Shown piece by piece: positions 86 through 32,326 of a stretch of 64,000 bases of DNA; position 1 is the first letter of the stretch; each line of letters starts with the position of its first letter. Location of the stretch: positions 216,006-280,005 of the forward strand of contig JACPBG010000001.1 in NCBI GenBank assembly GCA_016180435.1, in the 5' to 3' direction. A program made the position numbers and the translations under genes. The notes below the pieces were generated by a model. It was not told the DNA's origin, did no database searches, and worked only from the letters and a program-made list of their open reading frames with translations. This stretch comes from Candidatus Sungiibacteriota bacterium (GTDB lineage Bacteria; Patescibacteriota; Minisyncoccia; Sungbacterales; HO2-52-23).

Positions 86-1534
86 ATGTCAAGATTTCTA
101 AAAATATATCTTTATAATACTTTAACCCGCAGAAAAGAAGTATTTCGCCCACTTCACAAAAATTGGGTTGGTTTATATACCTGCGGGCCGACTGTCTATA
201 ACTATGCGCATATTGGAAATCTGCGAACTTATATTTTTGAAGACGTATTGCGGCGCACTCTCGCATATGCCGGATATAAAGTAAAACATGTAATGAATAT
301 TACCGATGTGGGGCATCTGACATCCGATGCGGACGAGGGCGAGGATAAGCTTGAAAAAGAAGCGCAGCAAGAAAAAAAATCCGTCTGGGATATTGCTGAA
401 TTTTATACCAGCGCATTTCTTAACGATATTTTGCGGCTCAATATAAAAAGGGCGGGGGTACTGACTCCGGCGACAAAAAATATCAAACAGCAGATTGCGC
501 TGATTGAAAAACTCTTCCGAACCGGCTTGGCGTATGAGACCACACAAGCGGTCTATTTTAATGTTTCTGAATTCAAGACGTATACAAAATTATCCCGCCA
601 AAGAATTGATGAAAAAATAACTGCCGCGCGCGCCGAAGTTATCCAGGACCCGGAGAAAAGAAATCCCCGCGACTTTGCGCTATGGTTCAAACGCACGGGA
701 AAATTCAAAAACCATGCCCTGCATTGGCCCTCGCCCTGGGGAGACGGATTCCCGGGCTGGCATATTGAATGTTCCGCAATTTCAACCGCATATTTGGGCC
801 AGCCTTTTGATATTCATACCGGCGGCGTTGACCATATCAGCGTCCACCACACCAATGAAATCGCCCAATCCGAAGGGGCATTCGGAAAACCCATGGTTAA
901 ATACTGGATGCACGGCGAATTTCTTCTGCTTGATCAGGCGCGCATGGGAAAATCCGTAGGAAATTTTATCACCTTGGATACGCTGGTTAAAAAAGGCATT
1001 AATCCCCTCGCATTTAGATACCTTGCGCTTGGCGCGCATTACCGTTCCAAATTGAATTTTACTTGGGAATCGCTTAGCGCCGCACAAAATTCGTTGGAGC
1101 GATTATATGATTTCGTTGAACGATTATCAGGACTATTGAGGCGAAACCTCGATAGCGACTATCGAGGTTTCGCCTCAATAGTAAAACCAAGAAAAAATTT
1201 TGAAAAGGCGATATATGACGACCTTGACACTCCTAAAGCGCTTTCGGTTTTGTGGAACTTAATCCGCGACTATAACAAAAAACCCGTGCGCTACCAACCG
1301 CGGGAAGTATTAAAACTGCTTTTTGACTTAGATCAAGTCCTGGGCTTGGGATTAAAAGATGTAAAATCCGAAAAAATTCCCGCAGAAATTCTTCAACTCG
1401 CCGAAAAACGTGAAGCGCTTCGTAAAGAAAAAAAATGGCAGGAAGCGGATCATATACGAAAAAAAATATTAAACGCCGGGTACGAAATTAAAGATTCACC
1501 ACAGGGATCACAAATCAAAGAGCGCCATAATTAA
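86..1534 (+). CDS. cysS: Cysteine--tRNA ligase (class I aminoacyl-tRNA synthetase)
   Basis: 482 aa; N-terminal CGPTVYNYAHIGN (HIGH-type motif), KMGKS (KMSKS-type) motif, typical CysRS length and architecture. Confidence 0.93.
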   Translation: MSRFLKIYLYNTLTRRKEVFRPLHKNWVGLYTCGPTVYNYAHIGNLRTYIFEDVLRRTLAYAGYKVKHVMNITDVGHLTSDADEGEDKLEKEAQQEKKSVWDIAEFYTSAFLNDILRLNIKRAGVLTPATKNIKQQIALIEKLFRTGLAYETTQAVYFNVSEFKTYTKLSRQRIDEKITAARAEVIQDPEKRNPRDFALWFKRTGKFKNHALHWPSPWGDGFPGWHIECSAISTAYLGQPFDIHTGGVDHISVHHTNEIAQSEGAFGKPMVKYWMHGEFLLLDQARMGKSVGNFITLDTLVKKGINPLAFRYLALGAHYRSKLNFTWESLSAAQNSLERLYDFVERLSGLLRRNLDSDYRGFASIVKPRKNFEKAIYDDLDTPKALSVLWNLIRDYNKKPVRYQPREVLKLLFDLDQVLGLGLKDVKSEKIPAEILQLAEKREALRKEKKWQEADHIRKKILNAGYEIKDSPQGSQIKERHN

Positions 1535-1568
1535 AAAGCCGCAAGCAAATTGCCTGCGGTTATTTGAT
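1533..1568. terminator. Bidirectional rho-independent terminator between convergent cysS and lipoprotein gene
   Basis: Hairpin gccgcaagc-aaatt-gcctgcgg flanked by A-run on 5' side and T-run on 3' side. Confidence 0.5.
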
Positions 1569-2138
1569 CTGGCTTAATCCCCGTCCAGCTGCGCCGGAAA
1601 ACGCGCCAGTTATCGGATCAGTAATATATTTTCTCTCTTTTTCGTCAACCACATAGTTATCGGGTATAATCAACCTGACAAACTTGTCATCAAAGAAAAT
1701 CAAATAGGCAATCAGGGACTCTCCGGTTCGCGGAAATGATGCCGAGATCGGAGAATCCAGCACCATGGGGCGGCTAGTCATGACAAGACGTATGGACTTT
1801 ATGCGGGTACGTTCCATCTTATCGCGGTGATCTTCAGCCGCTTCGGGAGTTGAGGCAATAATTTGCAGGCTCCCGTAAAGAAGCTCTTGCTTCTCTTTGG
1901 CCATTAAGACATCGCCCACATTGGGGGTTTTACGGGTGATATTCAGCTGTTTCATAACTTCCACATATGGGGTGTCTTTAGTGATAGCGTTTAGCTTACT
2001 CACGAGTTTATCGGCATTATCGGCAACTCCCGTAGGGATAATCTGGGTTTTGTTGAGCGGTATGCTTAATCCGCCGCATCCTGCCAATACTAAAGCCAGA
2101 TTAAATATTGCCCCCGCCAAAAGTGTATTATTACTCAT
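1560..2138 (-). CDS. Putative lipoprotein (signal peptide with LAGC lipobox)
   Basis: N-terminus MSNNTLLAGAIFNLALVLAGCGG fits SPII lipobox; no other recognisable domain. Confidence 0.5.
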   Translation of the reverse strand: MSNNTLLAGAIFNLALVLAGCGGLSIPLNKTQIIPTGVADNADKLVSKLNAITKDTPYVEVMKQLNITRKTPNVGDVLMAKEKQELLYGSLQIIASTPEAAEDHRDKMERTRIKSIRLVMTSRPMVLDSPISASFPRTGESLIAYLIFFDDKFVRLIIPDNYVVDEKERKYITDPITGAFSGAAGRGLSQIK

Positions 2139-2278: not shown

Positions 2279-3649
2279 ATGCCTCAAATCTCCACCCAAA
2301 ATCCTATTGAGCTTCGCATGCCGCCCCAAAACGTAGAGGCGGAAATGTCGGCTTTGGGATCGCTTATGCTTGACCGCGACGCAATTTTTAAAGTCGCGGA
2401 TTTTTTAAAGCCGCATGATTTTTATAAATCCGCACACCGCGAAATTTACGAGGCGATGCTCGACATTTTCAATCACCGCGAGCCGATTGACGTTTTATCG
2501 GTTACGGCGCGGCTTCGTGAAAAAGGAAAATTGGAGGAAGTTGGGGGATCCGCCTATATCACGAGTTTAGTGAATGTGGTTCCCACCGCCACCCACGTGG
2601 CGCATTACGCTTCAATTGTAAGAAAGAAGCGCCTACTCCGCGATTTAATTGAGGCATCCAGCCATATTGCACAGCTCGGGTACAAGGAGGCGGAGGATGT
2701 TGAACAATTGATCGATGAGGCGGAACAGAAAATATTCGGCATATCGCGCGACTCTCTGCGCCAGGAATTTTTTCTGATAAAAGATGCACTGGAAGAGGCC
2801 TGGGAACGCATTGAAAAAATCCATAACAGCCGCGACGCCCTGCGCGGAGTTACCACGGGCTTTAAAGAACTTGATTCAATCCTGGGGGGCTTGCAAAAAT
2901 CGGACTTGGTCGTGCTGGCTTCGCGCCCGAGTTTAGGAAAAACATCGCTGGCTCTGGATATTTCACGCAATGCCGCGCGAGCCAAACACGCGGTCGGCGT
3001 ATTTAGCTTAGAAATGTCCAAAGAACAGCTGGTGGACCGCTTAATCGCCAGCGAGGCCGCAGTAGACCTTTGGCGCCTGCGCACCGGACATTTAAATCAG
3101 CACGGCGATGGAAATGATTTCTCACGATTGCAAAGCGCTTTATCCACTCTATCGGAACTTCCCCTGTATCTGGACGATACGCCATCCCCCACCGTAATGG
3201 AGCTTCGCGCCAAAGCCAGGCGGCTGCAATCCGAAAAAAAACTTGAACTGGTGGTAATTGATTACCTTCAGCTAATTAAAGGTTATGGAAGCCCGGAGTC
3301 GCGAGTGCAGGAGGTATCGGAAATTTCTCGCTCCCTCAAGGCCATGGCCAAAGAGTTAAATGTGCCGGTGCTTGCTCTTTCCCAGTTATCGCGCGGAGTT
3401 GAAATGAGGCCCTCGGCCATTCCCAAACTTTCGGATTTACGCGAAAGTGGAAGCATTGAGCAGGATGCGGACGTGGTCATGTTTATTTACCGCGAAGATA
3501 AAGTCAAAGAAAACAGCGAACGTAAAAACATCGCCGAAATCCGCGTGGAAAAACACAGGAATGGCCCCACCGGCAAAATTGAACTGTATTTCCACGAAGA
3601 AACCGCCTCATTCCGCTCTCTTGAAAAACATATGGAGGAACTTATATAA
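2279..3649 (+). CDS. dnaB: Replicative DNA helicase DnaB
   Basis: 456 aa; DnaB N-terminal domain (NVEAEMSALGSLMLD), Walker A GxxxxGKT (SRPSLGKTS), C-terminal RecA-like motifs (DYLQLI, ESGSIEQDADVV). Confidence 0.93.
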   Translation: MPQISTQNPIELRMPPQNVEAEMSALGSLMLDRDAIFKVADFLKPHDFYKSAHREIYEAMLDIFNHREPIDVLSVTARLREKGKLEEVGGSAYITSLVNVVPTATHVAHYASIVRKKRLLRDLIEASSHIAQLGYKEAEDVEQLIDEAEQKIFGISRDSLRQEFFLIKDALEEAWERIEKIHNSRDALRGVTTGFKELDSILGGLQKSDLVVLASRPSLGKTSLALDISRNAARAKHAVGVFSLEMSKEQLVDRLIASEAAVDLWRLRTGHLNQHGDGNDFSRLQSALSTLSELPLYLDDTPSPTVMELRAKARRLQSEKKLELVVIDYLQLIKGYGSPESRVQEVSEISRSLKAMAKELNVPVLALSQLSRGVEMRPSAIPKLSDLRESGSIEQDADVVMFIYREDKVKENSERKNIAEIRVEKHRNGPTGKIELYFHEETASFRSLEKHMEELI

Positions 3650-3650
3650 A

Positions 3651-3797
3651 ATTATTCTAATTGTTCTAATTAACCTAATTGTTCTAATCAATGACCATAA
3701 AAAATGTCTAATGACCAAAACTATTTTAGATATTTAGACATTCGCAAAATTGGGATTTAATTAGGTAAATTAGAATAATTAGGTTAATTAGAATAAT
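3651..3797. repeat. AT-rich palindromic intergenic element E1 built from TTCTAAT / ATTAGAA heptamer arrays
   Basis: Left half attattctaattgttctaattaacctaattgttctaat; right half aattaggtaaattagaataattaggttaattagaataatt is its inverted counterpart; near-identical copy at 5158-5299. Confidence 0.8.
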
Positions 3798-3806
3798 TTT
3801 TATTTC

Positions 3807-4433
3807 TTGTACCCAGCGCCTATTCAAAAATTAATTGACCTGTTCACCAAATTTCCCGGCATTGGTCCCCGACAAGCCACTCGCTTTGTTTTTTTTATGC
3901 TGAAAAATCGTGCCCTTATACCCGATTTGCGGCAGGGATTGGCGGATTTGGATAGAAAAATCGCTTTTTGCCCGCTATGCTATCGGGCGCTTGAACAAAA
4001 TGGCGAAAAAGGCGCGTACTGTATGCTATGCCGCGACACCAAACGGAATAGCCGACAAATCGCCGTGGTGGAAAAAGAAGCGGATTTGCAAAATTTAGAA
4101 AAAACCGGATCATATTCCGGCCTTTATCATGTCTTAAGCGGACTCATTGCGCCGCTTGATCCAAATTCTCCAAAGGGTTTGCATTTAAAAGAATTGCACG
4201 AGCGGGTCAATAATCTACTGGAAAAAGAGAGGAAATGTGAGATTATTTTGGCAACCGGAACCACAACCGAAGGCGACATGACCGCGCTTTATATTGAACG
4301 AATCCTAGCGCCTTTGAAAAACAAATTTCCGGAACTTAAAATCTCGCGCCTAGGCCGAGGACTCTCACTCGGCTCCGAACTTGAATATGCGGATGAAGTA
4401 ACCCTGAAAAACGCCTTAACGAACAGGAAATGA
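3807..4433 (+). CDS. recR: Recombination protein RecR
   Basis: 208 aa; HhH N-terminus (FPGIGPRQATR), C4 zinc finger CPLC...CMLC, Toprim region. Confidence 0.9.
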   Translation: MYPAPIQKLIDLFTKFPGIGPRQATRFVFFMLKNRALIPDLRQGLADLDRKIAFCPLCYRALEQNGEKGAYCMLCRDTKRNSRQIAVVEKEADLQNLEKTGSYSGLYHVLSGLIAPLDPNSPKGLHLKELHERVNNLLEKERKCEIILATGTTTEGDMTALYIERILAPLKNKFPELKISRLGRGLSLGSELEYADEVTLKNALTNRK

Positions 4434-4482
4434 AGGAATAATATAGCTACTTAAAATTATACTTTTCTGATTAGCAGCTTTT

Positions 4483-5157
4483 CTATCCGTACACCGGGGA
4501 CTCGCGGTAAATACAGTACTCGCAATTTTGATGGGCTTTGGGAATCGGGCCGGTAACGATTTCGCGGACTCTTTTTAAAACCGAGATGCCACGCGATGGA
4601 GAAACATCCATTTTGATAAGTTCGGTCTTAAAATCCGCCGCACCCATGCCGTATGACGTTGGCCAGAAAAATAATAAATATCCGTATTCTGCCGGAGGCA
4701 TTTTATTTTCGCGGAAAAGCAAAGCATATAAATCAAGCTGGGTGCGGTAATGTTCATGCGTATCCTCTTTGGTCGGATAACCGCGGGTTTTGAAATCAAA
4801 CGGCACAAACTTTCCGTCAGGCGCAATTAACAAATCGTCAATCGCGCCGCGAAGCACAATATCAAGGTCCGGAAATTTTGCCCCAAGACCCCCGCGGCCA
4901 AAATCTACTTCACGCCATTTATTAAATTCGGCCAAATTTTCATTATAAAGCCGGCCATCCGCTTTTCCATCAATCTCCGGAGGCAATTCGCCGCGTTTCC
5001 GATATTCGTCAAAATATTTTTTGAAAACATTATCCATTCCGTCCGGAAGCGACGGATAGGCGCCGCGCGGGCGCTTTTTATTTTCATTCATCTGCAGCCA
5101 AAGACAGCGCGGACATTCCAATAAATAACTTGTACCGGATGGAGAAACTTTAATCAC
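4483..5157 (-). CDS. Cas4/RecB-family PD-(D/E)xK nuclease with putative Fe-S cysteines (stand-alone)
   Basis: Motifs IDDLLIAPDGKFVPFDFK (D..D/ExK), QLDLYALL (QxxxY), Cys pairs CPRC (N-term) and CEYC (C-term). Start uncertain: track start at 5199 is TTG inside repeat E2; GTG at 5157 or ATG at 5091 are alternatives. Confidence 0.55.
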   Translation of the reverse strand: MIKVSPSGTSYLLECPRCLWLQMNENKKRPRGAYPSLPDGMDNVFKKYFDEYRKRGELPPEIDGKADGRLYNENLAEFNKWREVDFGRGGLGAKFPDLDIVLRGAIDDLLIAPDGKFVPFDFKTRGYPTKEDTHEHYRTQLDLYALLFRENKMPPAEYGYLLFFWPTSYGMGAADFKTELIKMDVSPSRGISVLKRVREIVTGPIPKAHQNCEYCIYRESPVYG

Positions 5158-5299
5158 AATTATTCTAATTACTCTAATTGCTCTAATTATTCTAATCAAA
5201 TCCTAATGACAAAATGTCTAAAAACTTTAGGAAATAGGCATTCAAATCATTGAGGTTTTTTAGGTTAATTAGGTCAATTAGAATAATTAGGTTAATTTA
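5158..5299. repeat. AT-rich palindromic intergenic element E2 (second copy of E1 family)
   Basis: aattattctaattactctaattgctctaattattctaatc ... aatgtctaa ... ttaggttaattaggtcaattagaataattaggttaatt; collinear with E1 at 3651-3797. Confidence 0.8.
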
Positions 5300-5747
5300 A
5301 TAGGCCCTTTATTTCCTTCAAAATACTATCCGGCACCGGATCACGCTCGGGCGCATGCCCGGGATAGCGCCAAGCGGTTATCACTTTAATTCGTTTAGGT
5401 TTGGGAATTGGAAATTGAGAATTGGAAATTCCTCGCACGGCCGTTACCATATACATAACCCATATTTCGGAATATTTCTTTCCTTCTGCCGGAGACATAG
5501 CAGCAATAGCGCGAGGCAATATCCCCTCCTCCGCCCGCGCCGGATGACGAATCACCCGTTTAATCCGCGATTCAGTCAAACGATAATGCCGCATTTTCAT
5601 ACGCGAGTGCTGAGTCCAAATATATTTATCACTCCATCCTCCTGAATGTCCCACGGTCTTGATACGAGAATGAAGAATTTTCTTCAATCTTTCTCGCGGG
5701 GTCCAATATTCCGCGCGAAGACGGGGGAATTTATCCACAGATATCAT
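5292..5747 (-). CDS. Hypothetical protein, DUF4258-like motif (possible toxin-like small protein)
   Basis: WTQHSRMKMRHYRLTESRIKRVIRHP resembles the DUF4258 T-x-H-A-x-E-R-M-x-E-R-x-I signature; contains in-frame simple repeat at 5401-5436. Confidence 0.35.
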   Translation of the reverse strand: MISVDKFPRLRAEYWTPRERLKKILHSRIKTVGHSGGWSDKYIWTQHSRMKMRHYRLTESRIKRVIRHPARAEEGILPRAIAAMSPAEGKKYSEIWVMYMVTAVRGISNSQFPIPKPKRIKVITAWRYPGHAPERDPVPDSILKEIKGLLN

Positions 5748-5800
5748 AACTAAACTTTATCACCGCAAACAAAGAAAAACAAATTAAAAACTCCATAAAA

Positions 5801-7387
5801 TCAAATTTTTATGGAGTCAAGATCAAACTCGCGATTTTGGATCATTAAAACAAGCTTCTCCAGGTCCTCATCCAGCGGACGATCCTTGCCGACAAAAGCA
5901 ACTTTGCTCCTAACCTTTTCATAGATTTTTCTGGTTCTCGGGTCAAGTTTTGCCGGATCGCGTCCGCTCCGAAGATCAGCGGCCTGCGTAACCGTAAGTA
6001 AAGTAATCGCAAGCAGCATTGTCAGCGCTTCGTTCAAAGCAAGCGCCTGACGAGCGGCGCCAAAACCAAAACTGACAATATCCTGATTCATAGATTCGGT
6101 CGCGCGGCGGAGCGGCGCATATGGCTGCGCCAGAAACTTAGCCTCTCCATATACATCGGTTCCACAAAGACCTACGCCCTTGAGTCCGCTATTGAATCCC
6201 GGCTCTTCTCCAGCTAAGCTCGGCGGAAGACCTTCATTGAGCCGCGCATCCAAAATCCGCTCTTTCACGGCGAACATCAAATCCGCAACCAAACCCATTT
6301 GCTGTTTCAAACGGTCCATTGCGTCCGCGATGTCAAACCCCGAGAAATTTCCAGTATGATGAATCTTCTTTTCTTCAAAATTAACCACAGGATTATCGTT
6401 GGCCGAGTTCATCTCGCACATGATTACCTTTTTAATTTCCCTGAGAGCGGTAAGCACCGGACTGAAAACGTGCGGAGAACACCGTTGCGAATATGCTTTC
6501 TGGGTATCCACCACGTTAGTAAGAACGCCTGCCTTAACCGATCGTTCCACCTGCGCACGCAATTCATCAATATCTTTGGTAAGTGCGCTTCCTTCAAGAA
6601 GAAGACGCAGGTCGCGGGCAGCTATTTGCTGTCCGGGATGTGGTTTCACACTATGTACAAAAGGATGAAGAGAATCGGTAATACCCTCCGATGCCTCAAA
6701 GGAAAGCGCGGTACACGCCAAAGCAAGTTTTACAAAATAACATGCGTCGTACCAGGCAAAGGCGGCCATGGAAGTCATGGCAGATGTTCCATTCACCAAA
6801 GAGAGACCTTCTTTTTCACGAAGCACCAACGGTTCCAGACGCAGTTCACACAAAACATCGGCAGTTTCTCGTATGCGGCCTTGATACCATGCTTTCCCGC
6901 TACCGCGCACAACCGCTGCAAGTGCCGCCAGCGGAACCAGATCTCCGCTGGCGCCAACCGATCCATAGCGATGGATTATAGGAAGAACGTCGCAGTTAAG
7001 TAATTGAATAATCCGCAAAACCTTATCAGGTCCGATTGCCGAACATCCCTCGTGCAAAATGGCGTTTACGCGAAGAAGCATTATACCCCGCACAATTTCC
7101 GGATGGATTAACCTGCCAATACCGCAAGAGAGCGAATTGATCAAATTTTCCTGAAAAGGGATCCGTTTCTCTTCCGGAATAACAATGTTGTCATTTGCGC
7201 CAACAGCCAGACGGTCACCGTACATACGAATATCGCTTGCCAAATAAAACGCCCTGCTTCTTATGAGTTTCTGTACCGCCTCCGAATCTTTGGGAAGATA
7301 TACGGCCCTTCGCCCTCGAGCAACGAGAATCAATTTTTCAATCGTCAAACTTTCTCCATCCACAATGACAGGCGATAAATTCTTCAT
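5801..7387 (-). CDS. MIO-dependent aromatic amino acid ammonia-lyase/aminomutase family (HAL/PAL/TAL-like)
   Basis: 528 aa; MIO-forming Ala-Ser-Gly triad in GSVGASGDLVPLA; global HAL/PAL architecture; selectivity positions read S-L (NSLSCGIG) rather than HAL S-H. Confidence 0.85.
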   Translation of the reverse strand: MKNLSPVIVDGESLTIEKLILVARGRRAVYLPKDSEAVQKLIRSRAFYLASDIRMYGDRLAVGANDNIVIPEEKRIPFQENLINSLSCGIGRLIHPEIVRGIMLLRVNAILHEGCSAIGPDKVLRIIQLLNCDVLPIIHRYGSVGASGDLVPLAALAAVVRGSGKAWYQGRIRETADVLCELRLEPLVLREKEGLSLVNGTSAMTSMAAFAWYDACYFVKLALACTALSFEASEGITDSLHPFVHSVKPHPGQQIAARDLRLLLEGSALTKDIDELRAQVERSVKAGVLTNVVDTQKAYSQRCSPHVFSPVLTALREIKKVIMCEMNSANDNPVVNFEEKKIHHTGNFSGFDIADAMDRLKQQMGLVADLMFAVKERILDARLNEGLPPSLAGEEPGFNSGLKGVGLCGTDVYGEAKFLAQPYAPLRRATESMNQDIVSFGFGAARQALALNEALTMLLAITLLTVTQAADLRSGRDPAKLDPRTRKIYEKVRSKVAFVGKDRPLDEDLEKLVLMIQNREFDLDSIKI

Positions 7388-7468
7388 ATGTCCTCCTTGT
7401 CAAAGGACGTATTTTCTATCCCCATGTAACCACTGTCTGTTTACACAGTCAAATGCGTGTATATAAAA

Positions 7469-7501
7469 TAAAAAGGCCAAGGCAAAACCTCGGCTTTTTT
7501 T
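7469..7501. terminator. Hairpin with flanking A/T runs (bidirectional terminator; serves minus-strand CoA ligase gene)
   Basis: aaaaa-ggccaaggcaaaacctcggc-ttttttt. Confidence 0.5.
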
Positions 7502-7502
7502 C

Positions 7503-9107
7503 TTATTTTTCGTCTGCCTTTTTCATTTGCAGATCGAGTGATAAATCTATCAGTTTGCGAAGTTCATGCTTCAAAACAGTTCCTTTGGCGGCTTTAGGCA
7601 ATTCATTCACAAATTGAACCCGGCGGATTGCGGAATAACCCGAAAGTTTTTCATGGCTCATCCTCATCACATCTTCCTCGGTCAAGGCCGCATCCGCGCG
7701 CACCACAAATGCATACGGAATTTCTCCTTTATCTTGGTCCGGACATCCTATAACAGCAATCTCGCTTATTCGATCTCCGAAATACCGCAACATCACATCC
7801 TCGATTTCCTTGGGCCATACAGCAAAACCGCTCACCTTCATCATATCATCTTGACGGTCAATAATCCGAAGATGACTTTCATCAAGCACCCCGATATCTC
7901 CGGTAAAAAGCCAGCCCTTGCGAATCCTTTCCTGTGTGGCCTTGGGATTCCGGAAATATCCTTTAAAAACATTAGGCCCTCGAATGATCACCTCGCCCCG
8001 TTTGCCGTCTTGCGTAATTCGTCTGCCGGATTTATCTACCAAACGCACCTCAACGTTTTCAATCGGCTCTCCTACGCTGTCATAACGGTATCCGGACTTA
8101 ACGTCGGCATTGTAGGTCGCAAAAGGAGTGCTCTCGGTTAGGCCGTATCCCATATAAATTTTCCGGCTGAATTTATCATGCCAAGCCCGGGCAGTTTCCG
8201 GAGCAAGCGGCGCTCCGGCGGAAAAAAAATAGCGCACCGAATTAAATGAATCCACATCATTCATACGCAATAATTTTTCATATCCCACCGGAACATGAAA
8301 AAACATGGAAACCCGATTGTCTTGAAGCGACTTGAGTATTTCCGGCGGATTGAACCGCGGGTGCAGTACCAGAGTTGCTCCGGCGTTGAAAGTCGCATTC
8401 ATAATGAAATTCTGACCAAAACAATGAAAAAGCGGCAAAAAACAAATAGCCACATCCTCGGAAGTCATGCCGGTGTGATGAACCGTGGCATTGATATTTG
8501 ACATCACGTTGCCGTGCGTCAACACCGCGCCCTTTCTTCGACCGGTGGTTCCGCTGGTAAGCAGTATGAGCGCAGGGTCTGACGGATCAAGGTCCTGCAA
8601 CGGAGCATAATCCGTGCAAACACCGATTTTTTCCACCTGATAAATCGGCAACACGCCGCCTAAAATAGACGCCTCGCCCCACAAATTTTCATCGGCAACA
8701 AGCACCCTGGGCTTGAGAAAATCAACGTATTCTTTAAGCTCATCGCCTTTCATAGCGGATGAAAGTAATACCGGAACCGCGCCAATCCGCCAAGCCGCAT
8801 AATTTACAACAGGGTACCAAACGTTATTGGTAAGAAAAACCCCGACTCTATCATTTTTCTTAACTCCCCACGATTTCAGTTCCCCGCTGAAAAGACATGC
8901 CAATTCGTGAAGTTCGGCATAGGAAATATGACAATATATCGGTATGCTTTCAGCGGATGTCGCGGGTTCAGTTACCGCAACTTTATTTCCGAAATAACGC
9001 TCGGCTTTCTCCAAAACCGAAAATATGTTCATGATTGCGCCTCCAAAAGAAATATTTTCAACGAACACTCGGATTATATCAATCACGAATTTGTTGTCAA
9101 ACCGCAA
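7503..9107 (-). CDS. AMP-dependent acyl-CoA synthetase/ligase (ANL superfamily; 4-coumarate/cinnamate-CoA-ligase-like)
   Basis: 534 aa; AMP-binding motif LTSGTTGRRKGAVLTHGN, YRTGD-like FTGDIG, C-terminal lysine region PKAAKGTVLKHEL. Confidence 0.85.
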   Translation of the reverse strand: MRFDNKFVIDIIRVFVENISFGGAIMNIFSVLEKAERYFGNKVAVTEPATSAESIPIYCHISYAELHELACLFSGELKSWGVKKNDRVGVFLTNNVWYPVVNYAAWRIGAVPVLLSSAMKGDELKEYVDFLKPRVLVADENLWGEASILGGVLPIYQVEKIGVCTDYAPLQDLDPSDPALILLTSGTTGRRKGAVLTHGNVMSNINATVHHTGMTSEDVAICFLPLFHCFGQNFIMNATFNAGATLVLHPRFNPPEILKSLQDNRVSMFFHVPVGYEKLLRMNDVDSFNSVRYFFSAGAPLAPETARAWHDKFSRKIYMGYGLTESTPFATYNADVKSGYRYDSVGEPIENVEVRLVDKSGRRITQDGKRGEVIIRGPNVFKGYFRNPKATQERIRKGWLFTGDIGVLDESHLRIIDRQDDMMKVSGFAVWPKEIEDVMLRYFGDRISEIAVIGCPDQDKGEIPYAFVVRADAALTEEDVMRMSHEKLSGYSAIRRVQFVNELPKAAKGTVLKHELRKLIDLSLDLQMKKADEK

Positions 9108-9146
9108 TACTTATGCTAATGTTTCCCCAAGTAAAAGAGGGGTTTT

Positions 9147-10316
9147 ATGGCTCGTTCAAAATCAAATACAGTGATCGTGGAAGCCAAACGCACTCCCATA
9201 GGCAAACGCAATGGCGTTTTCAAAAACCTCAAAGCGCATGAGCTTGGCGGCGCGCTTATAAAATCAGTGTTGAATGCCTGGGGACACCGGGTTGATGAAG
9301 TGATTATGGGAAATATGATCGGAGTAAGCTTTGATGCCGCACAAGGATTGAGACCGCGCCTGAATCCGGCAATGGAGGCATGCATCAAAGCCGGATATGG
9401 ATTTATTCATGGATGGACATGCGGAGATGCCTGCAGTTCGGCGTTAAAATCGGTCATAGTCGGAGACAGAAGTATTCGCTCGGGAGATTGTTCAAGTGTC
9501 CTGGCCGGAGGCATGGAATCCATGAGCGGACTTCCGAAAGAGTGGCTGGCTATGGTGCTAAAGGATCCTAACGATTTATCTCCTCTGCATCCTACCGATT
9601 ATTTCTCACATGGATTCACTACACTGGAAGCCGGAGAATGGTGCGCCAAGTATTGCGGAGTAAGCCGCCAAGATCTAGATAATTGGGCCATAAAAAGTTA
9701 CTTGCGAGCGCGCAAGGCCCAGACCGATGGAGTTTTTAATACGCAGATTGTGCCAATTAACGAAGTTGCTTTGGATGAAGAACCAACTCTGCCGATTACC
9801 GAAGACATGATACTCAAAGCCGCACCCAAATTGGGACCGGACGGAACCATAACGTATTATACCGCATCCAAAAATGCGGACGGGGCGTCGGTCGTGTGGC
9901 TAATGGATCCAACATTCGCAAAAAAACGCGGATTCCAACCGCTTGCCGAAATTGTAAGCCAAGCCCCAAGCCAAACCATACATCGCGATACAAGACACTT
10001 CACGGTTGAGCCTCTGCAGGCCATACACGCGGCCCTGCAAAAAGCCGATCTTTCACTGTCAGATGTAGATATTTTTGAAATAAATGCGCCATTCGCACCG
10101 GTAATAGTCCATGCAATCCGCCAACTCGGCATATCGGAGGAGTTGGTAAATATATATGGCGATTCAATCGCTTTCGGGCATCCGGTTGGAGCATCCGGCG
10201 CGATTTTGCTGGTACGCGCCATATACGCGCTTCTTGCCACCGGAGGACGTTATGCCGTAATTTGCCTGTGCCATGCGCTGGGCGGCGCAACTGCAATGGT
10301 TATCCGGCGAATGTAA
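9147..10316 (+). CDS. Thiolase-family protein (acetyl-CoA C-acyltransferase-like)
   Basis: 389 aa; N-terminal thiolase fold, C-terminal GHPVGASGAILLVRAIYAL and CLCHALGGATAMVI matching thiolase GHPxGASG and CxGGGxG regions. Confidence 0.7.
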   Translation: MARSKSNTVIVEAKRTPIGKRNGVFKNLKAHELGGALIKSVLNAWGHRVDEVIMGNMIGVSFDAAQGLRPRLNPAMEACIKAGYGFIHGWTCGDACSSALKSVIVGDRSIRSGDCSSVLAGGMESMSGLPKEWLAMVLKDPNDLSPLHPTDYFSHGFTTLEAGEWCAKYCGVSRQDLDNWAIKSYLRARKAQTDGVFNTQIVPINEVALDEEPTLPITEDMILKAAPKLGPDGTITYYTASKNADGASVVWLMDPTFAKKRGFQPLAEIVSQAPSQTIHRDTRHFTVEPLQAIHAALQKADLSLSDVDIFEINAPFAPVIVHAIRQLGISEELVNIYGDSIAFGHPVGASGAILLVRAIYALLATGGRYAVICLCHALGGATAMVIRRM

Positions 10317-10425: not shown

Positions 10426-10740
10426 TTATTGGGAAAGTTCTTTATCTATATCCGTAAGTTCGGCATCCAAATCATCCATTTTCATCGCGTTTAATTCATT
10501 TTCCATCGTCTCTTCTTCGCTTGGCATCATATTATTACCGGACATCATGTTATCCGGAACCATCATCTCGCCCGTATCGCTGGGCGCGGATGCATAATAA
10601 TAGTACGCAAGCGCGACAACTATGATGGCGGCCGCAATCACCGCCCCAAGCCACATTTTATTTTCTGGCGGAGACGGCAGCATTGGCGGAGATGATGGTG
10701 GCTGGCCGGACGACGGCAAATTGGTTTGATTTCCATTCAT
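10426..10740 (-). CDS. Hypothetical small membrane protein (Pro/Ser-rich N-terminus, one TM helix, acidic C-terminus)
   Basis: 104 aa; hydrophobic stretch LGAVIAAAIIVVALAYYYY. Confidence 0.35.
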   Translation of the reverse strand: MNGNQTNLPSSGQPPSSPPMLPSPPENKMWLGAVIAAAIIVVALAYYYYASAPSDTGEMMVPDNMMSGNNMMPSEEETMENELNAMKMDDLDAELTDIDKELSQ

Positions 10741-10829
10741 GTTTGCTTCGCAAAAGATCTTAGAACTTAGCGTCTAGAACTTAGTAATTTTCTAAGTTCT
10801 AAGTTCTAAATTCTAAGTTCTCGTATTAA
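10741..10829. repeat. Heptamer array element E3: 2x AGAACTTAG then 4x CTAAGTTCT (inverted)
   Basis: tcttagaacttagcgtctagaacttagtaattttctaagttctaagttctaaattctaagttctcg upstream of minus-strand gene 10426-10740. Confidence 0.75.
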
Positions 10830-11600
10830 CTATGGTTCTGTTGAAGTCGCATTTCCTCCTCCCAGACCTTTAGTTGAGCGCACCACATCCACCAAGGCGC
10901 GGTGCGCGGCCTTTACTTTCTCCGCAACCCCATGCACCAATTCCCGGACTTTGGCAAATGACTTTTTGAAATCCGGATCGCTGACGGCCGATGCATATTT
11001 GGCCTTGGCGTCTTCCAGCGCGTTTTGAGCATCATCAATGGCTGATTCGGCTGTATCAAGTTTCGCGCGAAGTTCATCCACATTCTTGCCGTTGGCAGCT
11101 GCTTTATCCAGACGCTCGCCTATGCGCTTAGCAAAATCATTCAGGCGGTCGATTGCGCCTTCGAATTTTTTGACCATGTGGTCAAAAAACATTTCGATCT
11201 TTTCGGCCCGCTTTTCGCCGAGTTTCTTTTTTAACTCTTCGCGCCGCGCTTTGGCCGTGTCGCGGAATTCCTCGCGTTTGGCACGCACCTCATCGCGGAA
11301 CCCCTCCCGCTTATCGCGGATCTCTGCCCGCATGGTTTGACGTTTCTCGCGCATTTCTTCGGTCATGGCTCCGCGCTTTTGCGTCATTTCCTCGCGCATG
11401 GCATCGCGTTTCTCGCGCATCTCCTGCATCATGGTTTCCCGCTTATCCGTGATGCCCTGACGCGTATCCTGACGCTTTTGCTGGATGTCTTTGCGCGTAT
11501 CGCGTTTTTGGTCACGCAGGGTTTGGGCTGCAACCAAAATCGGCAAAATAGATAACAGCGCCAACGAACCTCCTATAATTAATACATATCTTTTATTCAT
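10830..11600 (-). CDS. Hypothetical secreted coiled-coil protein with internal KR-x-x-M-x-x-EM repeats
   Basis: 256 aa; signal-peptide-like N-terminus; repetitive MREKRDAMREEMTQKRGAMTEEMREKRQTMRAEIRDKREGFRDEV. Confidence 0.4.
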   Translation of the reverse strand: MNKRYVLIIGGSLALLSILPILVAAQTLRDQKRDTRKDIQQKRQDTRQGITDKRETMMQEMREKRDAMREEMTQKRGAMTEEMREKRQTMRAEIRDKREGFRDEVRAKREEFRDTAKARREELKKKLGEKRAEKIEMFFDHMVKKFEGAIDRLNDFAKRIGERLDKAAANGKNVDELRAKLDTAESAIDDAQNALEDAKAKYASAVSDPDFKKSFAKVRELVHGVAEKVKAAHRALVDVVRSTKGLGGGNATSTEP

Positions 11601-11701: not shown

Positions 11702-12748
11702 TCAAAGAGAAATTACTTCCTCCCACGGCAGGTCCGGCTTGCCAAAATGACCATAAGATGCGGTGCTTAAATAAATTGGCCGGCGCAAATTAAGACGCTC
11801 AATTATGGCTTGCGGCCGAAAATCGAATTTTTCGGAAACTAGTTTTCCTAAATCCTTACCGTCGCTGGTTTCGGCATGCACCATCAAGGGCTCGGCGCGG
11901 CCAATAGCATATGCAACCGAGACCATACAATCCTTGGCAAGTCCGTTTGCCACGATATTTTTAGCCGCATATCGCGCCATATAGGCGGCCGAGCGATCCA
12001 CTTTGGTAGGGTCCTTGCCGGAAAACGCGCCGCCGCCATGCGGAATAAGCCCGCCATACGTATCCACCATGATTTTTCTGCCGGTAAGTCCGGTGTCTGC
12101 CGTAAATCCGCCGATTACAAATTTTCCGGTAGGATTGACCAAGACCTCGATTCCCGATAAATCACCAGTAACCGGATGGATCAATTTGCGCAGCAGTATT
12201 TCTTTAATTTCCGGCTGGGAGATGCTGTCCGAGTGCTGACATGATATCAATACAGCGCTCAATTTCCCATCATGCATCGTTACCTGCGATTTGCCGTCAG
12301 GGCCAAGCCATGAACATTCAGAATCGTTTCTGCGCAAATCCTCAAGGCCTTTGGTAAATTTATGCGCCAGCGAAACAGCCCGCGGAAGAAATTCCGGGGT
12401 TTCGGCAGTAGCGTATCCATACATAATACCCTGATCCCCGGCGCCTCCGGTGTCCACTCCCTGCGCGATATCCGGGGACTGACGGATGATATTCGTAACA
12501 ACTTTCAAATTATCCGCATATCCGATGTCGCGGTATATTTTTTGCGCAATTTCTCCGGCCTCAATCTCCCCCCGGGAAGTTACTTCTCCTCCCACGACCA
12601 AAAGTCCGTGGGAGCCAAAACTCTCCACAGCCACGCGGGAATGCGTATCTTTTTTAAGATATTCGTCCAAAATCGCGTCCGAGATTTGGTCGCATATTTT
12701 ATCCGGATGTCCGGAGGTTACGCTTTCTACGGTGTATGTGGTACGCAT
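11702..12748 (-). CDS. metK: S-adenosylmethionine synthetase (methionine adenosyltransferase)
   Basis: 348 aa; N-terminal ESVTSGHPDKICDQISDAILD, GGGAFSGKDPTKVDRSAAYMARYAAKN signature. Confidence 0.9.
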   Translation of the reverse strand: MRTTYTVESVTSGHPDKICDQISDAILDEYLKKDTHSRVAVESFGSHGLLVVGGEVTSRGEIEAGEIAQKIYRDIGYADNLKVVTNIIRQSPDIAQGVDTGGAGDQGIMYGYATAETPEFLPRAVSLAHKFTKGLEDLRRNDSECSWLGPDGKSQVTMHDGKLSAVLISCQHSDSISQPEIKEILLRKLIHPVTGDLSGIEVLVNPTGKFVIGGFTADTGLTGRKIMVDTYGGLIPHGGGAFSGKDPTKVDRSAAYMARYAAKNIVANGLAKDCMVSVAYAIGRAEPLMVHAETSDGKDLGKLVSEKFDFRPQAIIERLNLRRPIYLSTASYGHFGKPDLPWEEVISL

Positions 12749-12759
12749 AAATGTAAATT

Positions 12760-12915
12760 AAAACTCACAAAGCACAGAAACCAAGACATAAACAAGCACT
12801 AAAATTCAAAATTCACCTAATTTCTAAGGCCTGAATTTTTAATTTCTTTATTTGGTATTTTATTAGAAATTAGACAATTAGGTAATTAGAAATTTATCTT
12901 AATGGGTTTTGTGCA
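12760..12915. repeat. Repeated ~150-bp leader/element E4 upstream of metK (homologous to 39476-39760 minus its inserted small element)
   Basis: acagaaacca..actaaaattcaaaattcacctaatttctaaggcctga..taatttctttatttggtattttattagaaattagacaattaggtaattagaaatt..gggttttgtgc shared almost verbatim with the region upstream of neuB. Confidence 0.75.
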
Positions 12916-12966: not shown

Positions 12967-13150
12967 GAAAAAAGCTATCGCTCCCCTTACAGGGCTGGCA
13001 TTGGCACTATTCCGCTTTTAACGGAACTTTGCTGGCGGGTCATAGGGCCAGATCCCTCACCGCACTCTGGATAAAACATAAATTTTGATTATCTATATAA
13101 TACATGCAACTATACAAAAAACAAGAAAGTTTTCCACAAACATCCGACCA
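12966..13150 (-). ncRNA. Candidate small non-coding transcript (unclassified)
   Basis: ~180-nt GC-richer stretch between two minus-strand terminators, preceded by AT-rich promoter-like sequence at ~13085-13130, ending in the terminator at 12936-12966; contains several helices (gggccagatccc, ccgcttttaacgg); no match to SRP/6S/RNase P/tmRNA motifs that I could recognise. Confidence 0.2.
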
Positions 13151-16706: not shown

Positions 16707-19481
16707 CTAGATTTTGCCGTGGCAATGCTTATACTTCTTTGGGCGGCCGTCAGAATGGGCCGCTCCGCACGGGCAGGGGTCATTGCGACTTGGTTCTTTT
16801 TGGCCTTTTAATTTAATAGAAGCTCCCATTTTTCCCGAAGAAGATTCTTCGCCCGGTTTAAATTGACTTACCGCAATATCCGGCCGGCGCTCCTCAACCC
16901 GGCGGGGATTTTCTCCGGCCATAGATATGGCGCCGACTTTAAAAATGGTGTGAACTATTTCACTGCGAATCGCGGCCTGCAGCTGCCGAAAAAGCCGCAC
17001 GCCCTCATTTTTATATTCCACTAATGGATCGCGCTGTCCGTAGGCGCGCAGGCGTACCGAATCGCGCAAATGCTCCATTTGATCAAGCTGATCCATCCAT
17101 AAAACATCAATGGTGCGAAGCATCACGGCGCGCTCGGAAGAGCGCATCTGCTCATCTCCCACGGCCTTTTCATGCTCTTCATATTTTGACTCCAAAACAT
17201 CAAATATAAAAGTGCCTATCTTATTGCGCTTCTCATCGCCGTATAATTCCTCGCCCGCAATTTCACGGAGTTTATGATGCATATCATCGGAAATCGACGC
17301 AATACTTTTTACTCCCTCGAATATTTCTTCAAGATTCCAATCGTCAATCCGATCGGCTGATGCATGAAATTCCACTAATTTTGAAACTTCTTCCTTAATC
17401 ATATCAAAAATCCTTTCGCGTAAGGTAACTTTCTCGACTTCGCTCGAAGAATAATTATCTAAGTTACCATTTGGGATTTGGGATTTGGGATTTGGGATTT
17501 CCGAAAAGAGAATATCTTTTCGGAGGCGGTATATTGAGTCCCTCTGCCTATTCAGCACATCATCAAACTCCAGCACGTGCTTTCGCGCATCAAAATGAAA
17601 CCCCTCGATTTTTTCCTGCGCGGCTTCAATAGCGCGCGATACCATGCGGTTTTCAATTGGCTGATCTTCAGGGATACCGAGAGTTTCCATCATGCGCCTC
17701 ACCCTCTCTGCCCCGAATATCCGCATCAAATCGTCTTCCATAGATACGAAAAACTGCGACTCGCCCGAATCGCCTTGCCGTCCGGCGCGTCCGCGCAACT
17801 GATTATCGATCCGGCGCGCCTCATGCCGCTCGGTGCCGATCACGCATAACCCCCCCAACCCGCGGACAATATCAGCTTCTTTCTGATCCTGCGGATTTCC
17901 TCCAAGAATTATGTCAACGCCTCGTCCGGCCATGTTGGTTGCAATTGTAACAGCACCAGCTCTGCCGGCTTGCGCGATGATCAATGCCTCGCGCTCGTGA
18001 TTTTTGGCGTTTAATACCTCATGCGGCACGCCTTCAACCTCAAGCATTTTGACCAGGCGTTCATTTTTTTCGATGGACACGGTGCCAACAAGCACCGGCT
18101 GACCTCTGCCATATCTTTCTTTTACTTCGCGTACAACTGCCTGCATTTTCCCCCGCTCGGTGCGAAATACCAAATCAGGCAAATCGCGGCGCACCATGGG
18201 GCGATGCGTGGGAACGGATATCACGTCAAGGTTATAGACCTTATGAAATTCCTCGGCCGAGGTTTGCGCGGTTCCGGTCATGCCCCCGAGTTTTTTATAC
18301 ATGCGGAAATAATTTTGAAACGTAATAGTGGCAAGGGTCCGCGATTCCTGTTCAACCCGCACGCCTTCTTTGGCCTCCACCGCCTGATGCAATCCCTCCG
18401 ACCAACGGCGCCCGGGCATAAGGCGCCCGGTAAACTCATCCACAATTGTCACTTTGCCGTCCTTTACCACATAATCGCGATCACGCGTAAATAAGGCTTG
18501 CGCCCGCAAGGCCTGTTCCAGATGATGCACAAAACGAATTCCTTTTTCCTCATAAATATTTCCGATGCCAAGCATTTGCTCAACTTTATCAATACCCGCC
18601 TCGGTGATGGATACGGCGCGCAGTTTTTCATCCACATTGTAATCAATATTTTCTTTCAGGCGCGGTACGATTTTTGAAAATACGCGGTAAAGTTCGGCGG
18701 ACTCTGCATCCGGCGCGGAAATTATCAAAGGAGTTCGCGCCTCATCAATTAAAATGGAATCCACCTCGTCAACTATGGCGTAATGATGGTGTTTTTGCCG
18801 AAGCGATTCGGGCGCATATTCTAAATTATCGCGCAAATAATCAAAGCCGAATTCGTTGTTGGTGCCGTAAGTTATGTCCGCGGCATAGGCTTCATGCCGC
18901 GCACAAGGCCGGAAATGCGAAAGGCGCGGATCATCATGACGCTGGATGTCTTGAAATTCCGGATCATAAATTCCGGAAAATTCATGGGCGATAACTCCGG
19001 TTGATACGCCCAGCGCGTGATACACCGGCCCCATCCAGCCCGCGCCAACCCGCGACAAATAATCATTCGGAGTAACCAAATGCGCGCCCCTGCCTTCAAG
19101 CGAATTCAAATAAAGCGGCAGGGTGGCCACCAGGGTTTTTCCCTCGCCGGTTTTCATCTCGGCAATTTTTCCCTCATGAAGCACAATTCCACCGGCTAAC
19201 TGCACATCAAAATGCCGCTGATTAAGTTTTCTCTTGGCAGCTTCCCGAACCGCGGCAAACGCCTCAGGAAGAATTTCTAACAGGGATCCGATCCCTGTTA
19301 CAGGGATCGGATCCCTGTTTATTCCTAGACGCCGCTTAAATTCAACCGTAAGATTTCTAAGTTCTTCATCTGAGAATTTTTCAAAATCTTTCTCCAATTC
19401 ATTGATCTCATCAACAATCGGCTGGAGAGATTTTATATAGCGTTCATTGGCATCCCCAAAAATTTTTCCCAAGATTGACAT
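16707..19481 (-). CDS. secA: Protein translocase subunit SecA
   Basis: 924 aa; DEAD-like motor (MKTGEGKTLVATLP, DEVDSILIDEARTPLIIS), C-terminal zinc-binding CPCG...HCHG; carries two unusual in-frame insertions (17470-17499; palindrome near 19270-19320). Confidence 0.95.
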   Translation of the reverse strand: MSILGKIFGDANERYIKSLQPIVDEINELEKDFEKFSDEELRNLTVEFKRRLGINRDPIPVTGIGSLLEILPEAFAAVREAAKRKLNQRHFDVQLAGGIVLHEGKIAEMKTGEGKTLVATLPLYLNSLEGRGAHLVTPNDYLSRVGAGWMGPVYHALGVSTGVIAHEFSGIYDPEFQDIQRHDDPRLSHFRPCARHEAYAADITYGTNNEFGFDYLRDNLEYAPESLRQKHHHYAIVDEVDSILIDEARTPLIISAPDAESAELYRVFSKIVPRLKENIDYNVDEKLRAVSITEAGIDKVEQMLGIGNIYEEKGIRFVHHLEQALRAQALFTRDRDYVVKDGKVTIVDEFTGRLMPGRRWSEGLHQAVEAKEGVRVEQESRTLATITFQNYFRMYKKLGGMTGTAQTSAEEFHKVYNLDVISVPTHRPMVRRDLPDLVFRTERGKMQAVVREVKERYGRGQPVLVGTVSIEKNERLVKMLEVEGVPHEVLNAKNHEREALIIAQAGRAGAVTIATNMAGRGVDIILGGNPQDQKEADIVRGLGGLCVIGTERHEARRIDNQLRGRAGRQGDSGESQFFVSMEDDLMRIFGAERVRRMMETLGIPEDQPIENRMVSRAIEAAQEKIEGFHFDARKHVLEFDDVLNRQRDSIYRLRKDILFSEIPNPKSQIPNGNLDNYSSSEVEKVTLRERIFDMIKEEVSKLVEFHASADRIDDWNLEEIFEGVKSIASISDDMHHKLREIAGEELYGDEKRNKIGTFIFDVLESKYEEHEKAVGDEQMRSSERAVMLRTIDVLWMDQLDQMEHLRDSVRLRAYGQRDPLVEYKNEGVRLFRQLQAAIRSEIVHTIFKVGAISMAGENPRRVEERRPDIAVSQFKPGEESSSGKMGASIKLKGQKEPSRNDPCPCGAAHSDGRPKKYKHCHGKI
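17470..17499. repeat. In-frame simple-sequence repeat (TTGGGAT/GGGATTT)x4 inside secA
   Basis: ttgggatttgggatttgggatttgggattt encodes IPNPKSQIPNG in SecA. Confidence 0.85.
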
Positions 19482-23335: not shown

Positions 23336-24307
23336 TCAGAATCCGACATATTGAATTTCCTCCTCCAATATCACCCCAAATTTACGCATACAAGTGTCTT
23401 TTATTATAGAGATCAGGGTTAAGATATCCTCGGCTTTGGCATTGCCCGGATTTATTATAAAATTCGCGTGCTTCGGCGAAACCACGGCATTCCCGACACG
23501 CCAGCCTTTAAGCCCGGCCATTTCAATAAAAAATCCGGCAGAAATAAAACCCCGGCGGTTCTCAAAAACCCAGCTTGAATTTTCATGTTTTCTATGCCAC
23601 CACGGAATACGGTTACCCAATTTTTCCAAAATTTCTTCGGACAATGGGACTCCTTTGAATATGCTTCCGGCGGACGACTCGCCGATCGGCTGCTCGCCAA
23701 TGCGCTCCGCGCTTTTTTGCCTGATTACCTCTAAAAGCTCCGCGGTGCGCGCCGGATCTTCCTGTTTTAATTTTAAAACAGCGGAAAGTATAATCCACTC
23801 CGGATGTTTTTTAAAAATTGATTCTCTGTAACCAAATTGACACTCGCGAGCGTTTAGCGTAAAGCGTTTAGCGTTTAGAAAATCCAGCACTTCAACAGAT
23901 TCAATCACGTCTTTCATCTCGCCACCGAAACATCCGGCATTTCCGCGCACTGCCCCGCCCGCCGTTCCCGGCACCCCCGTCCCCCATTCAAGTCCCGAGA
24001 GTCCGGCTTTGGCGGTTTCTATAGCCAGACGCGGCATCATGATACCGGCATCAACAGTAACCTCCGGACCATTAATTCTAAGCTCTCCGCCGATAATATG
24101 AATGGCCAGGCCGTCAAATCCTTTGTCGCTCACCAAAATGTTGGATCCGGCGCCTAAAATAAAAATGGCCGCTTGATTTTTTGCGGCAAAATCAAGCGCC
24201 TCTTTCATTTCCTGTTCATTCCTTGCCTCGGCAAAAAATCGGGCAGGCCCCCCGATTTTATATACGGTATACGGCGCAAGAATAATATTATGCCGCAAGG
24301 CGATCAT
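23336..24307 (-). CDS. murB: UDP-N-acetylenolpyruvoylglucosamine reductase MurB
   Basis: FAD-binding N-terminal domain (YKIGGPARFF, ILGAGSNILVSD), C-terminal MurB domain; probable ATG at 24307 (track extends to 24376); in-frame GCGTTTAGCGT-type repeat at 23843-23868. Confidence 0.85.
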   Translation of the reverse strand: MIALRHNIILAPYTVYKIGGPARFFAEARNEQEMKEALDFAAKNQAAIFILGAGSNILVSDKGFDGLAIHIIGGELRINGPEVTVDAGIMMPRLAIETAKAGLSGLEWGTGVPGTAGGAVRGNAGCFGGEMKDVIESVEVLDFLNAKRFTLNARECQFGYRESIFKKHPEWIILSAVLKLKQEDPARTAELLEVIRQKSAERIGEQPIGESSAGSIFKGVPLSEEILEKLGNRIPWWHRKHENSSWVFENRRGFISAGFFIEMAGLKGWRVGNAVVSPKHANFIINPGNAKAEDILTLISIIKDTCMRKFGVILEEEIQYVGF

Positions 24308-32294: not shown

Positions 32295-32326
32295 TAGGAA
32301 TTAGGAATTAGGAATTAGGAATTAGT
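32294..32326. repeat. Tandem heptamer array (AATTAGG)x4.5 abutting the epimerase start codon
   Basis: attaggaattaggaattaggaattaggaattag; on the coding strand (CTAATTC)n runs directly into ATG with no Shine-Dalgarno. Confidence 0.85.

Follow-up and report, generated by a model that had tools for sequence, protein, structure and literature searches.

What is a Cas4/RecB-like nuclease gene doing in a chromosome where no CRISPR-Cas system accompanies it, and did it get there as an inserted module together with the small gene at its side? The question is raised by a stretch of 64,000 nt from Candidatus Sungiibacteriota bacterium (GenBank assembly GCA_016180435.1, contig JACPBG010000001.1, positions 216,006 to 280,005 of the forward strand), hereafter called the window. 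Here, the nuclease gene and a gene for a small basic protein lie close to dnaB, recR, and two palindromic repeat elements, E1 and E2. The initial annotation of this DNA had hinted at an inserted phage, mobile, or defence module. We arrive at another answer: the pair is probably a chromosomal unit of long standing in Sungbacteria/Parcubacteria, passed on vertically, in which a Cas4-like nuclease and a DUF4258/BECR-like partner serve DNA maintenance. Underlying this view are the observed conservation, synteny, coupling, motif invariance, purifying selection, and absence of a mobile, phage, or CRISPR context. Loci from related genomes and metagenomes are referred to below by L numbers where they need to be told apart.

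The nuclease had been described as a stand-alone Cas4/RecB-like enzyme carrying the family motifs, and this description holds. It passes the PF12705 (PDDEXK_1) model (44.4 bits, cut-off 22, E 2.5e-11), and stays below the cut-offs of the Cas4 models PF01930 (14.0 bits, cut-off 22.7) and TIGR00372 (30.4 bits, cut-off 65); the Cas4 models of PADLOC match it weakly (3e-10). Its family is large, counting at least 7,992 clusters at 90% identity of stand-alone proteins of ~220-240 aa. In both searches, the 120 best homologues all stand alone (207-289 aa), and no domain fusions occur among the top homologues. A fragment of AddAB, AdnAB, or RecBCD was considered as well and rejected, since the homologues stand alone and dnaB is the sole helicase among the open reading frames (ORFs) of the window that were selected for Pfam scans (11 within ~10 kb and 10 large ones beyond). 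No helicase partner is found among these scanned ORFs, of which the large ones are SecA and envelope enzymes.

An alignment of the nuclease with 26 orthologues of 62-91% identity (A1, 27 sequences) brings out the motifs E14-C15-P-R-C18, GAID107D, FD121FK123TRG, H134EHYRxQ140LDLY144, and C212EYC215, in which E14, C15, C18, D107, D121, K123, H134, E135, H136, Y137, R138, Q140, Y144, C212, and C215 are invariant. D107, D121, K123, Q140, Y144, and all four cysteines are still invariant in an alignment of eight sequences that reaches down to 23% identity (A4). Its family match and motifs make the product a stand-alone Cas4/RecB-like PD-(D/E)XK nuclease, the four cysteines forming its predicted metal site. 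These cysteines are laid out 2+2 (C15xxC18 ... C212xxC215), with the C-terminus following 4-9 residues past C215. The canonical Cas4 pattern, known from SSO0001 and AddB, is C-Xn-C-X2-C-X5-C, that is, 1+3. The nuclease fails this pattern, its four invariant cysteines being present but differently spaced, and because of the 2+2 layout one cysteine ligand appears to have shifted from the C-terminal to the N-terminal motif. An AlphaFold2 model of the protein (predicted local distance difference test score, 86.5; predicted template-modelling score, 0.85) has as its best solved structures in Foldseek the nuclease domain of AdnA (6ppu_A, 1e-5) and the Cas4 of a Cas4-Cas1-Cas2 complex (7mi5_A, 2.7e-5), followed by human Exo5 and the Cas4 protein SSO0001; all of these best matches have TM-scores of ~0.45-0.5 at 14-20% identity. 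Motifs and predicted fold together place the enzyme in the iron-staple branch (Cas4/AddB/AdnA/Exo5), as a divergent member that stands alone.

The suspicion that the annotated N-terminus runs into E2 also proved correct, and it leads to a corrected start codon. Most orthologues in A1 begin at, or a few residues ahead of, MIK(V/I)SPSG, and the 93% identical nuclease of L009 starts with an ATG at MIKVSPSG, preceded by an unrelated 113-nt spacer. Codons 1-14 of the ORF as called read 'MIRIIRAIRVIRII', which is the 9-nt array of E2 in frame. Because of the orthologue starts, and of the L009 start with its unrelated upstream sequence, we take these 14 surplus codons for non-coding E2 array; going by the orthologues, the true start is the GTG at 5157 (MIKVSPSG...).

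The product of the small ORF has 100% identity to the NCBI protein HYT98_01060 of a Candidatus Sungbacteria metagenome-assembled genome, and this copy has no Pfam match at E<=10. PF14076 (DUF4258) is the sole family that recurs among its relatives, always below threshold: it matches 17 of 31 close relatives (best E 2.6e-4) and 40 of 64 at greater distance (best E 6.3e-5), that is, 57 of 95 in total. The DUF4258 motif that the initial annotation saw in this gene can thus stand as a similarity, a fair but sub-threshold call; its placement downstream of the nuclease cannot, the gene being upstream by transcription. In all, 337 homologues, mostly of 101-180 aa, align to the C-terminal ~112 residues, and those with a source label come from Sungbacteria, Patescibacteria, or Parcubacteria. 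The family is a narrow one, because an exhaustive profile search of 1.84 billion proteins yields just 332 representative clusters. Its core (alignment A2) reads KY(I/L)WTxH(S/A)xxKMRxYRLTESR(I/V)KR(I/V)IRHPxRxEEG...YSEIWxMY-[variable loop]-K(I/V)K(I/V)ITAWRYPGxSPxRDP(I/V)P, with an invariant histidine, conserved basic residues, and a His-x3-Lys/Arg helix.

Two side observations concern this protein. The loop joining its two conserved halves is a hotspot of in-frame repeat insertion: a TTGGAAA tandem array (5401-5430) encodes it in the window, and low-complexity inserts of 0-100 aa occupy it in the orthologues (A2 columns ~130-240), with 75 aa in L009, a close relative. Furthermore, one relative (P0315) carries an MTS/RsmD-like (nucleic-acid) methyltransferase domain as a fusion, and an S-adenosylmethionine (SAM)-dependent methyltransferase gene lies between the small gene and the nuclease in L022 (747-1415) and L034 (5309-6001).

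How stable is the association of the two genes? A nuclease-anchored scan with one genome per GTDB species gave 41 loci, four of them without a usable flank. In 19 of the 41, the small gene shares the strand of the nuclease and lies 5' of it, and two more (L014 and L015) show the order cysS-dnaB->nuclease-> <-recR<-small. In at least 12 species-level Sungbacteria genomes, metK and/or the apolipoprotein-like (apoL-like) gene precede the pair, in a conserved block of metK - apolipoprotein-like - ~100-aa ORF - small - nuclease. The window keeps this order and orientation, with peptidoglycan-binding and SecA genes further upstream, as in L001 and L006. The proposed phage, mobile, or defence module does not survive this finding, orthologues in a conserved chromosomal unit being just what the initial annotation had named as evidence to the contrary. 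The two genes overlap, often by ATGA, or are separated by a few nucleotides in L011, L016, L023, L026, L059, and L064, and they are often translationally coupled and probably co-transcribed.

The small protein was also used as an anchor, giving 80 metagenome loci, 60 of them with usable flanks. A nuclease of the same PD-(D/E)XK family adjoins the small gene on the same strand in 23 of these 60, and 19 of the 23 have the reversed order (nuclease, then small gene, often overlapping). The reversed-order nucleases are only 24-33% identical to the one in the window, yet they keep CPRCFWL...CxxC and pass PF12705. Because the pairing recurs in two orders across nucleases as divergent as these, we argue for a functional link. 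The loci without a nuclease are informative too. They have a recurrent order, <-dnaX, PEBP->small->MPG (3-methylpurine DNA glycosylase)->ychF, with dnaX (divergent, upstream) and PEBP in 14 loci each and MPG (downstream) in eight; an EEP-family nuclease lies upstream of the small gene in one locus. In L014 and L015, recR follows 1 nt after the small gene and the nuclease 8 nt after dnaB. Owing to these recR, MPG, dnaX, and EEP neighbours, we see the company of the small protein as that of DNA replication and repair, not as a conserved antitoxin.

Some findings weigh against our interpretation. No small gene lies within 6 kb in 16 of the 41 nuclease loci, mostly those with nucleases <=66% identical, and no nuclease lies within 4 kb in 32 of the 60 small-protein loci; the pairing is for that reason to be called frequent, not obligatory. 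In distant lineages, the neighbours of the nuclease are generic housekeeping genes (Pth, HisRS, proteases) and not repair-specific. Lastly, the nuclease has a strong full-length match (E=1.6e-37) in phrog_31195, a family annotated as of unknown function.

As to the mechanism, we infer the substrate, the metal cofactor, the physical interaction, and the pathway. The nuclease appears to have an intact metal-dependent active site (D107, D121-x-K123, and Q140/Y144), and its two N-terminal and two C-terminal cysteines would staple the ends of the fold together, most likely through an Fe-S (iron-sulphur) cluster, with zinc as the alternative. By analogy with its structural relatives, its most likely task would be to trim single-stranded DNA ends or 5' flaps when these small genomes replicate or undergo recombinational repair. 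The small protein would contribute a divergent DUF4258/BECR-fold domain; in the same pathway it would partner the nuclease by binding nucleic acid or cleaving RNA, rather than act as a selfish toxin. Tentatively, one may go a step further and suppose that the nuclease gained its dedicated partner by domestication of a toxin-type BECR/DUF4258 domain in Parcubacteria, giving a two-component nuclease of replication-coupled repair that is specific to the Candidate Phyla Radiation (CPR). Such a pair could possibly process RNA/DNA flaps or ends in genomes without RecBCD/AddAB.

Conserved neighbours may of course share no function, in which case the nuclease would act alone in repair and the small protein would be an unrelated housekeeping RNA-binding protein or RNase in the same operon. 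Operons of reduced genomes often mix functions, and the unpaired loci of both kinds, the methyltransferase fusion of P0315, and the methyltransferase gene between the pair in L022 and L034 all fit such an arrangement. We nonetheless deem it unlikely, as chance re-association would hardly explain an adjacency found in two orders with nucleases 24-33% identical, or the frequent ATGA or near-zero spacing.

Could the pair instead be a toxin-antitoxin or defence module, with the small protein as a DUF4258-like BECR RNase toxin and the nuclease, or another neighbour, as its partner or effector? DUF4258 is grouped with RelE/ParE or colicin-like BECR toxins (PMC11980606; bioRxiv 10.64898/2026.08.28.747851), an invariant histidine and basic residues are kept, and there is the weak PADLOC Cas4 match of the nuclease. 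DUF4258 modules, however, usually have the gene order antitoxin then toxin, and no conserved small antitoxin gene lies beside the small gene, whose neighbours vary (HAL, HgmA in L014, PEBP, nuclease, recR, and MPG). A toxin or defence module also sits badly with the stable housekeeping synteny, with the lack of a second copy of the pair, in the window and in each locus retrieved, with the lack of a PADLOC match for the small protein, and with the absence of integrases and transposases among the scanned window ORFs. Both genes are under purifying selection, with ratios of nonsynonymous to synonymous substitution rates (dN/dS) against L009 of 0.07 (nuclease) and 0.20 (small gene). We regard this explanation as improbable.

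Very improbable, and largely refuted, is a phage- or mobile-derived Cas4-like gene, or an orphan remnant of CRISPR adaptation, inserted between repeats: the discordant phrog_31195 match, the likeness of the fold to many phage PD-(D/E)XK/Cas4-like proteins, and the flanking repeats are outweighed by a tblastn search of 50,697 phage genomes (INPHARED) without a match, an IMG/VR scan without a relative, viral folds (BFVD) that are 10-18% identical and no closer than cellular ones, Cas4 models that stay sub-threshold, scanned window ORFs without any cas genes (cas1 and cas2 included) and 64 kb without a CRISPR-like array or repeat family, just as the lack of CRISPR/Cas neighbours had been reported initially, and by a synteny that is kept and a closest relative that has the genes without E2. 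Taken together, conserved synteny, coupling, purifying selection, a GC content of 0.43 over 4400-5800 that equals that of the flanks without anomaly, the absence of phage relatives, and the missing PADLOC match for the small protein are the reasons why the inserted-module reading fails.

If the pair was not inserted, what was? The HAL, AMP-ligase, and thiolase genes (5801-10316) break the metK...small-nuclease synteny in the window, and L009 also has AMP-ligase-HAL-small-nuclease. All three block genes have a strong Shine-Dalgarno sequence (AAGGAGG, TGGAGG, and AGAGGGG), against none in 26 of the 30 other genes checked. It is likely that this block is the insertion, adjoining the pair, and that the pair itself is not inserted; the block looks like an acquired aromatic-acid catabolic cassette. 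In L014, the equivalent position is occupied by a homogentisate-dioxygenase-like gene (HgmA).

The repeats tell a similar story. E1 and E2 would fold as RNA hairpins of ~150 nt each (-44.6 kcal/mol, z -7.1, and -42.6 kcal/mol, z -5.6, respectively). The left arm of E2 consists of four to five AATTNNTCT units (5158-5196), followed by a spacer of ~65 nt and a right arm of four TTAGGNNAA/AATTAGRNN units (5260-5297). This 9-nt-array palindrome has two copies in the 64-kb window versus 0.04 expected. The pair had been placed between the two copies: these do exist, but they bracket recR and the nuclease, and E2 splits the pair by sitting between the nuclease and the small gene. L009 lacks E2, and because this 93% identical relative has the genes without it, the repeat is the newcomer and the genes are not. 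Compared with L014 and L015, the segment [recR, nuclease] is inverted, and both breakpoints coincide with E1 and E2; the junctions in L014 (5940-7900) and L015 are tight (8 nt and 1 nt) and contain no element. E1 and E2 may be portable terminator/promoter cassettes, and they may mark, or may have mediated, this inversion. An invertible switch was considered and rejected: the Logan contigs of the same population (L050-L057, from several SRR121134xx runs) are all window-type, with no junction of small to recR or of dnaB to the nuclease in any of them, and so give no evidence that the segment is polymorphic for the inversion today. All of them end within the right arm of E2 (5261-5288), and they traverse E1, except L057, which ends at 3757. 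The contig breaks in the right arm suggest heterogeneity in the number of array units or an assembly problem, not an active switch.

Related arrays occur elsewhere. (AATTAGRNN)n arrays, often after TTGGGATTT or TTAGGATTT, stop 0-12 nt ahead of start codons, namely those of recR (TTG, 3757-3806), the nuclease (GTG, 5155-5215, minus strand), a PEBP gene in L114 (3330-3396), and an ORF in L118 (4100-4190); each unit holds a TAGAAT-like -10 hexamer. The recR start itself agrees with a tblastn alignment that runs from residue 1 to recR of L014/L015, where the ORF starts with ATG. In the same manner, a CCTAATT x4 array (32293-32325) abuts the ATG of the gene 31383-32294 on the minus strand. The arrays may serve as portable promoter/terminator cassettes, in a genome whose genes mostly lack a Shine-Dalgarno sequence. 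Strictly oriented promoters were rejected, as in L131 (140-170 and 885-930) one array precedes the small gene in the opposite orientation and the other lies well ahead of a gene for an RRM protein; a search of Rfam gives no RNA gene at these two arrays.

The window further contains many intergenic 7-9-nt tandem arrays, often imperfect palindromes with units that vary by site (10760-10825, 12800-12895, 17469-17500, 23849-23878, 27294-27326, and 39654-39729). Other Sungbacteria have analogous arrays with different units in the same small-nuclease spacer (L003, 7883-8001; L019, 5870-6001; L018, 5932-6001). An intergenic element of ~135 nt has copies at 12759-12894 and 39477-39729 that are 85-92% identical, the second with a ~110-nt insert. 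It lies directly 5' of two 348-aa genes, metK and ORF 38406-39452, which were considered as paralogues and show no similarity in BLASTP. The metK copy is located between a SAM riboswitch aptamer (12972-13077, Rfam RF00162) and the start codon. Finally, two pairs of 45-nt direct repeats flank ORFs near 29.5-31.3 kb: 29469-29513/30453-30497 (98% identical) and 30544-30588/31279-31323 (87% identical and internally palindromic, ACTCTGATAT...ATATCAGAGT).

The layout of the locus is collected in the table below. The families found in the scanned ORFs are cysS, dnaB, recR, HAL, AMP-ligase, thiolase, metK, NYN, SecA, and envelope glycosyltransferases.

Table. Genes and repeat elements around the nuclease and its partner (window coordinates).
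Feature	Position	Strand	Basis or remark
cysS	86-1534	+	Pfam
192-aa ORF	1560-2138	-	
dnaB replicative helicase	2279-3649	+	DnaB and DnaB_C domains
Palindromic element E1, sister of E2	3648-3800	.	between dnaB stop and recR TTG start
recR (TTG start), convergent with nuclease	3807-4433	+	RecR_HhH, Toprim_4, and RecR_C domains
Nuclease coding sequence, 224 aa, GTG start	4483-5157	-	ORF as called: 4483-5199
Spurious N-terminal extension of nuclease ORF, TTG 5199 to 5158	5158-5199	-	E2 left-arm 9-nt array read in frame
Palindromic element E2, fills small-nuclease intercistronic gap	5152-5297	.	
Small basic protein, 151 aa, conserved core ~41-151	5292-5747	-	alignment A2
In-frame 7/14-nt tandem array (TTGGAAA x4.3) within small gene	5401-5430	-	
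HAL/PAL-type lyase	5801-7387	-	Pfam
AMP-dependent ligase	7503-9107	-	Pfam
Thiolase	9147-10316	+	Pfam
104-aa ORF	10426-10740	-	ancestral upstream synteny partner
Apolipoprotein-like protein (apoL-like)	10830-11600	-	ancestral upstream synteny partner
metK	11702-12748	-	ancestral upstream synteny partner

What is added here is a solo Cas4-like CPR nuclease with 2+2 cysteines and a recurrent DUF4258-like partner; the partner was previously undescribed, the kind of nuclease was already known. If the pairing is functional, it offers a first handle on the role of the abundant solo Cas4-like nucleases in CPR, bacteria with minimal repair toolkits, a question standing since the Cas4 phylogenomics survey of 2017. 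If true, it would also place a protein of a toxin fold (BECR/DUF4258) in housekeeping DNA maintenance. For annotation, we would advise caution: a stand-alone Cas4 next to a DUF4258 gene need not mean a defence or toxin-antitoxin island.

The closest known system is the solo Cas4, which that survey found over-represented in CPR and DPANN, evolving mainly vertically and with an unsettled role in repair or defence (Hudaiberdiev et al. 2017, PMC5704561). Like those proteins, the nuclease has ~220 aa, lies outside CRISPR-cas, combines PD-(D/E)XK and QxxxY motifs with four cysteines, and is probably vertically inherited in environmental bacteria with small genomes. Unlike them, it belongs to PF12705 and not PF01930/COG1468, its cysteines are arranged 2+2 and not 1+3 (C...CxxCx5C), and it has a recurrent DUF4258-like partner gene that goes unmentioned in the survey. 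With AdnA/AdnB, AddB, Exo5, Dna2, and SSO0001, which are end-resection or flap-processing enzymes, it would share, according to the model, the catalytic constellation and the N- and C-terminal cysteines that pin the domain. It differs from this group in that it has no fused helicase, its Fe-S binding is putative, and one cysteine ligand appears relocated from the C-terminal to the N-terminal side.

The small protein, for its part, resembles DUF4258 (PF14076)/Ntox49 in size, in the H-[AS]-x2-[KR]-M-x-x-[YR] helix, in strands ending '(I/V)ITAWR', and in the predicted beta-alpha-alpha-beta-beta-beta-alpha order. Unlike these families, it has no antitoxin partner, a fixed housekeeping synteny near repair and replication genes, and a variable insertion loop. 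Unlike type II toxin-antitoxin systems, moreover, the small gene combines varying partners with a stable synteny and purifying selection.

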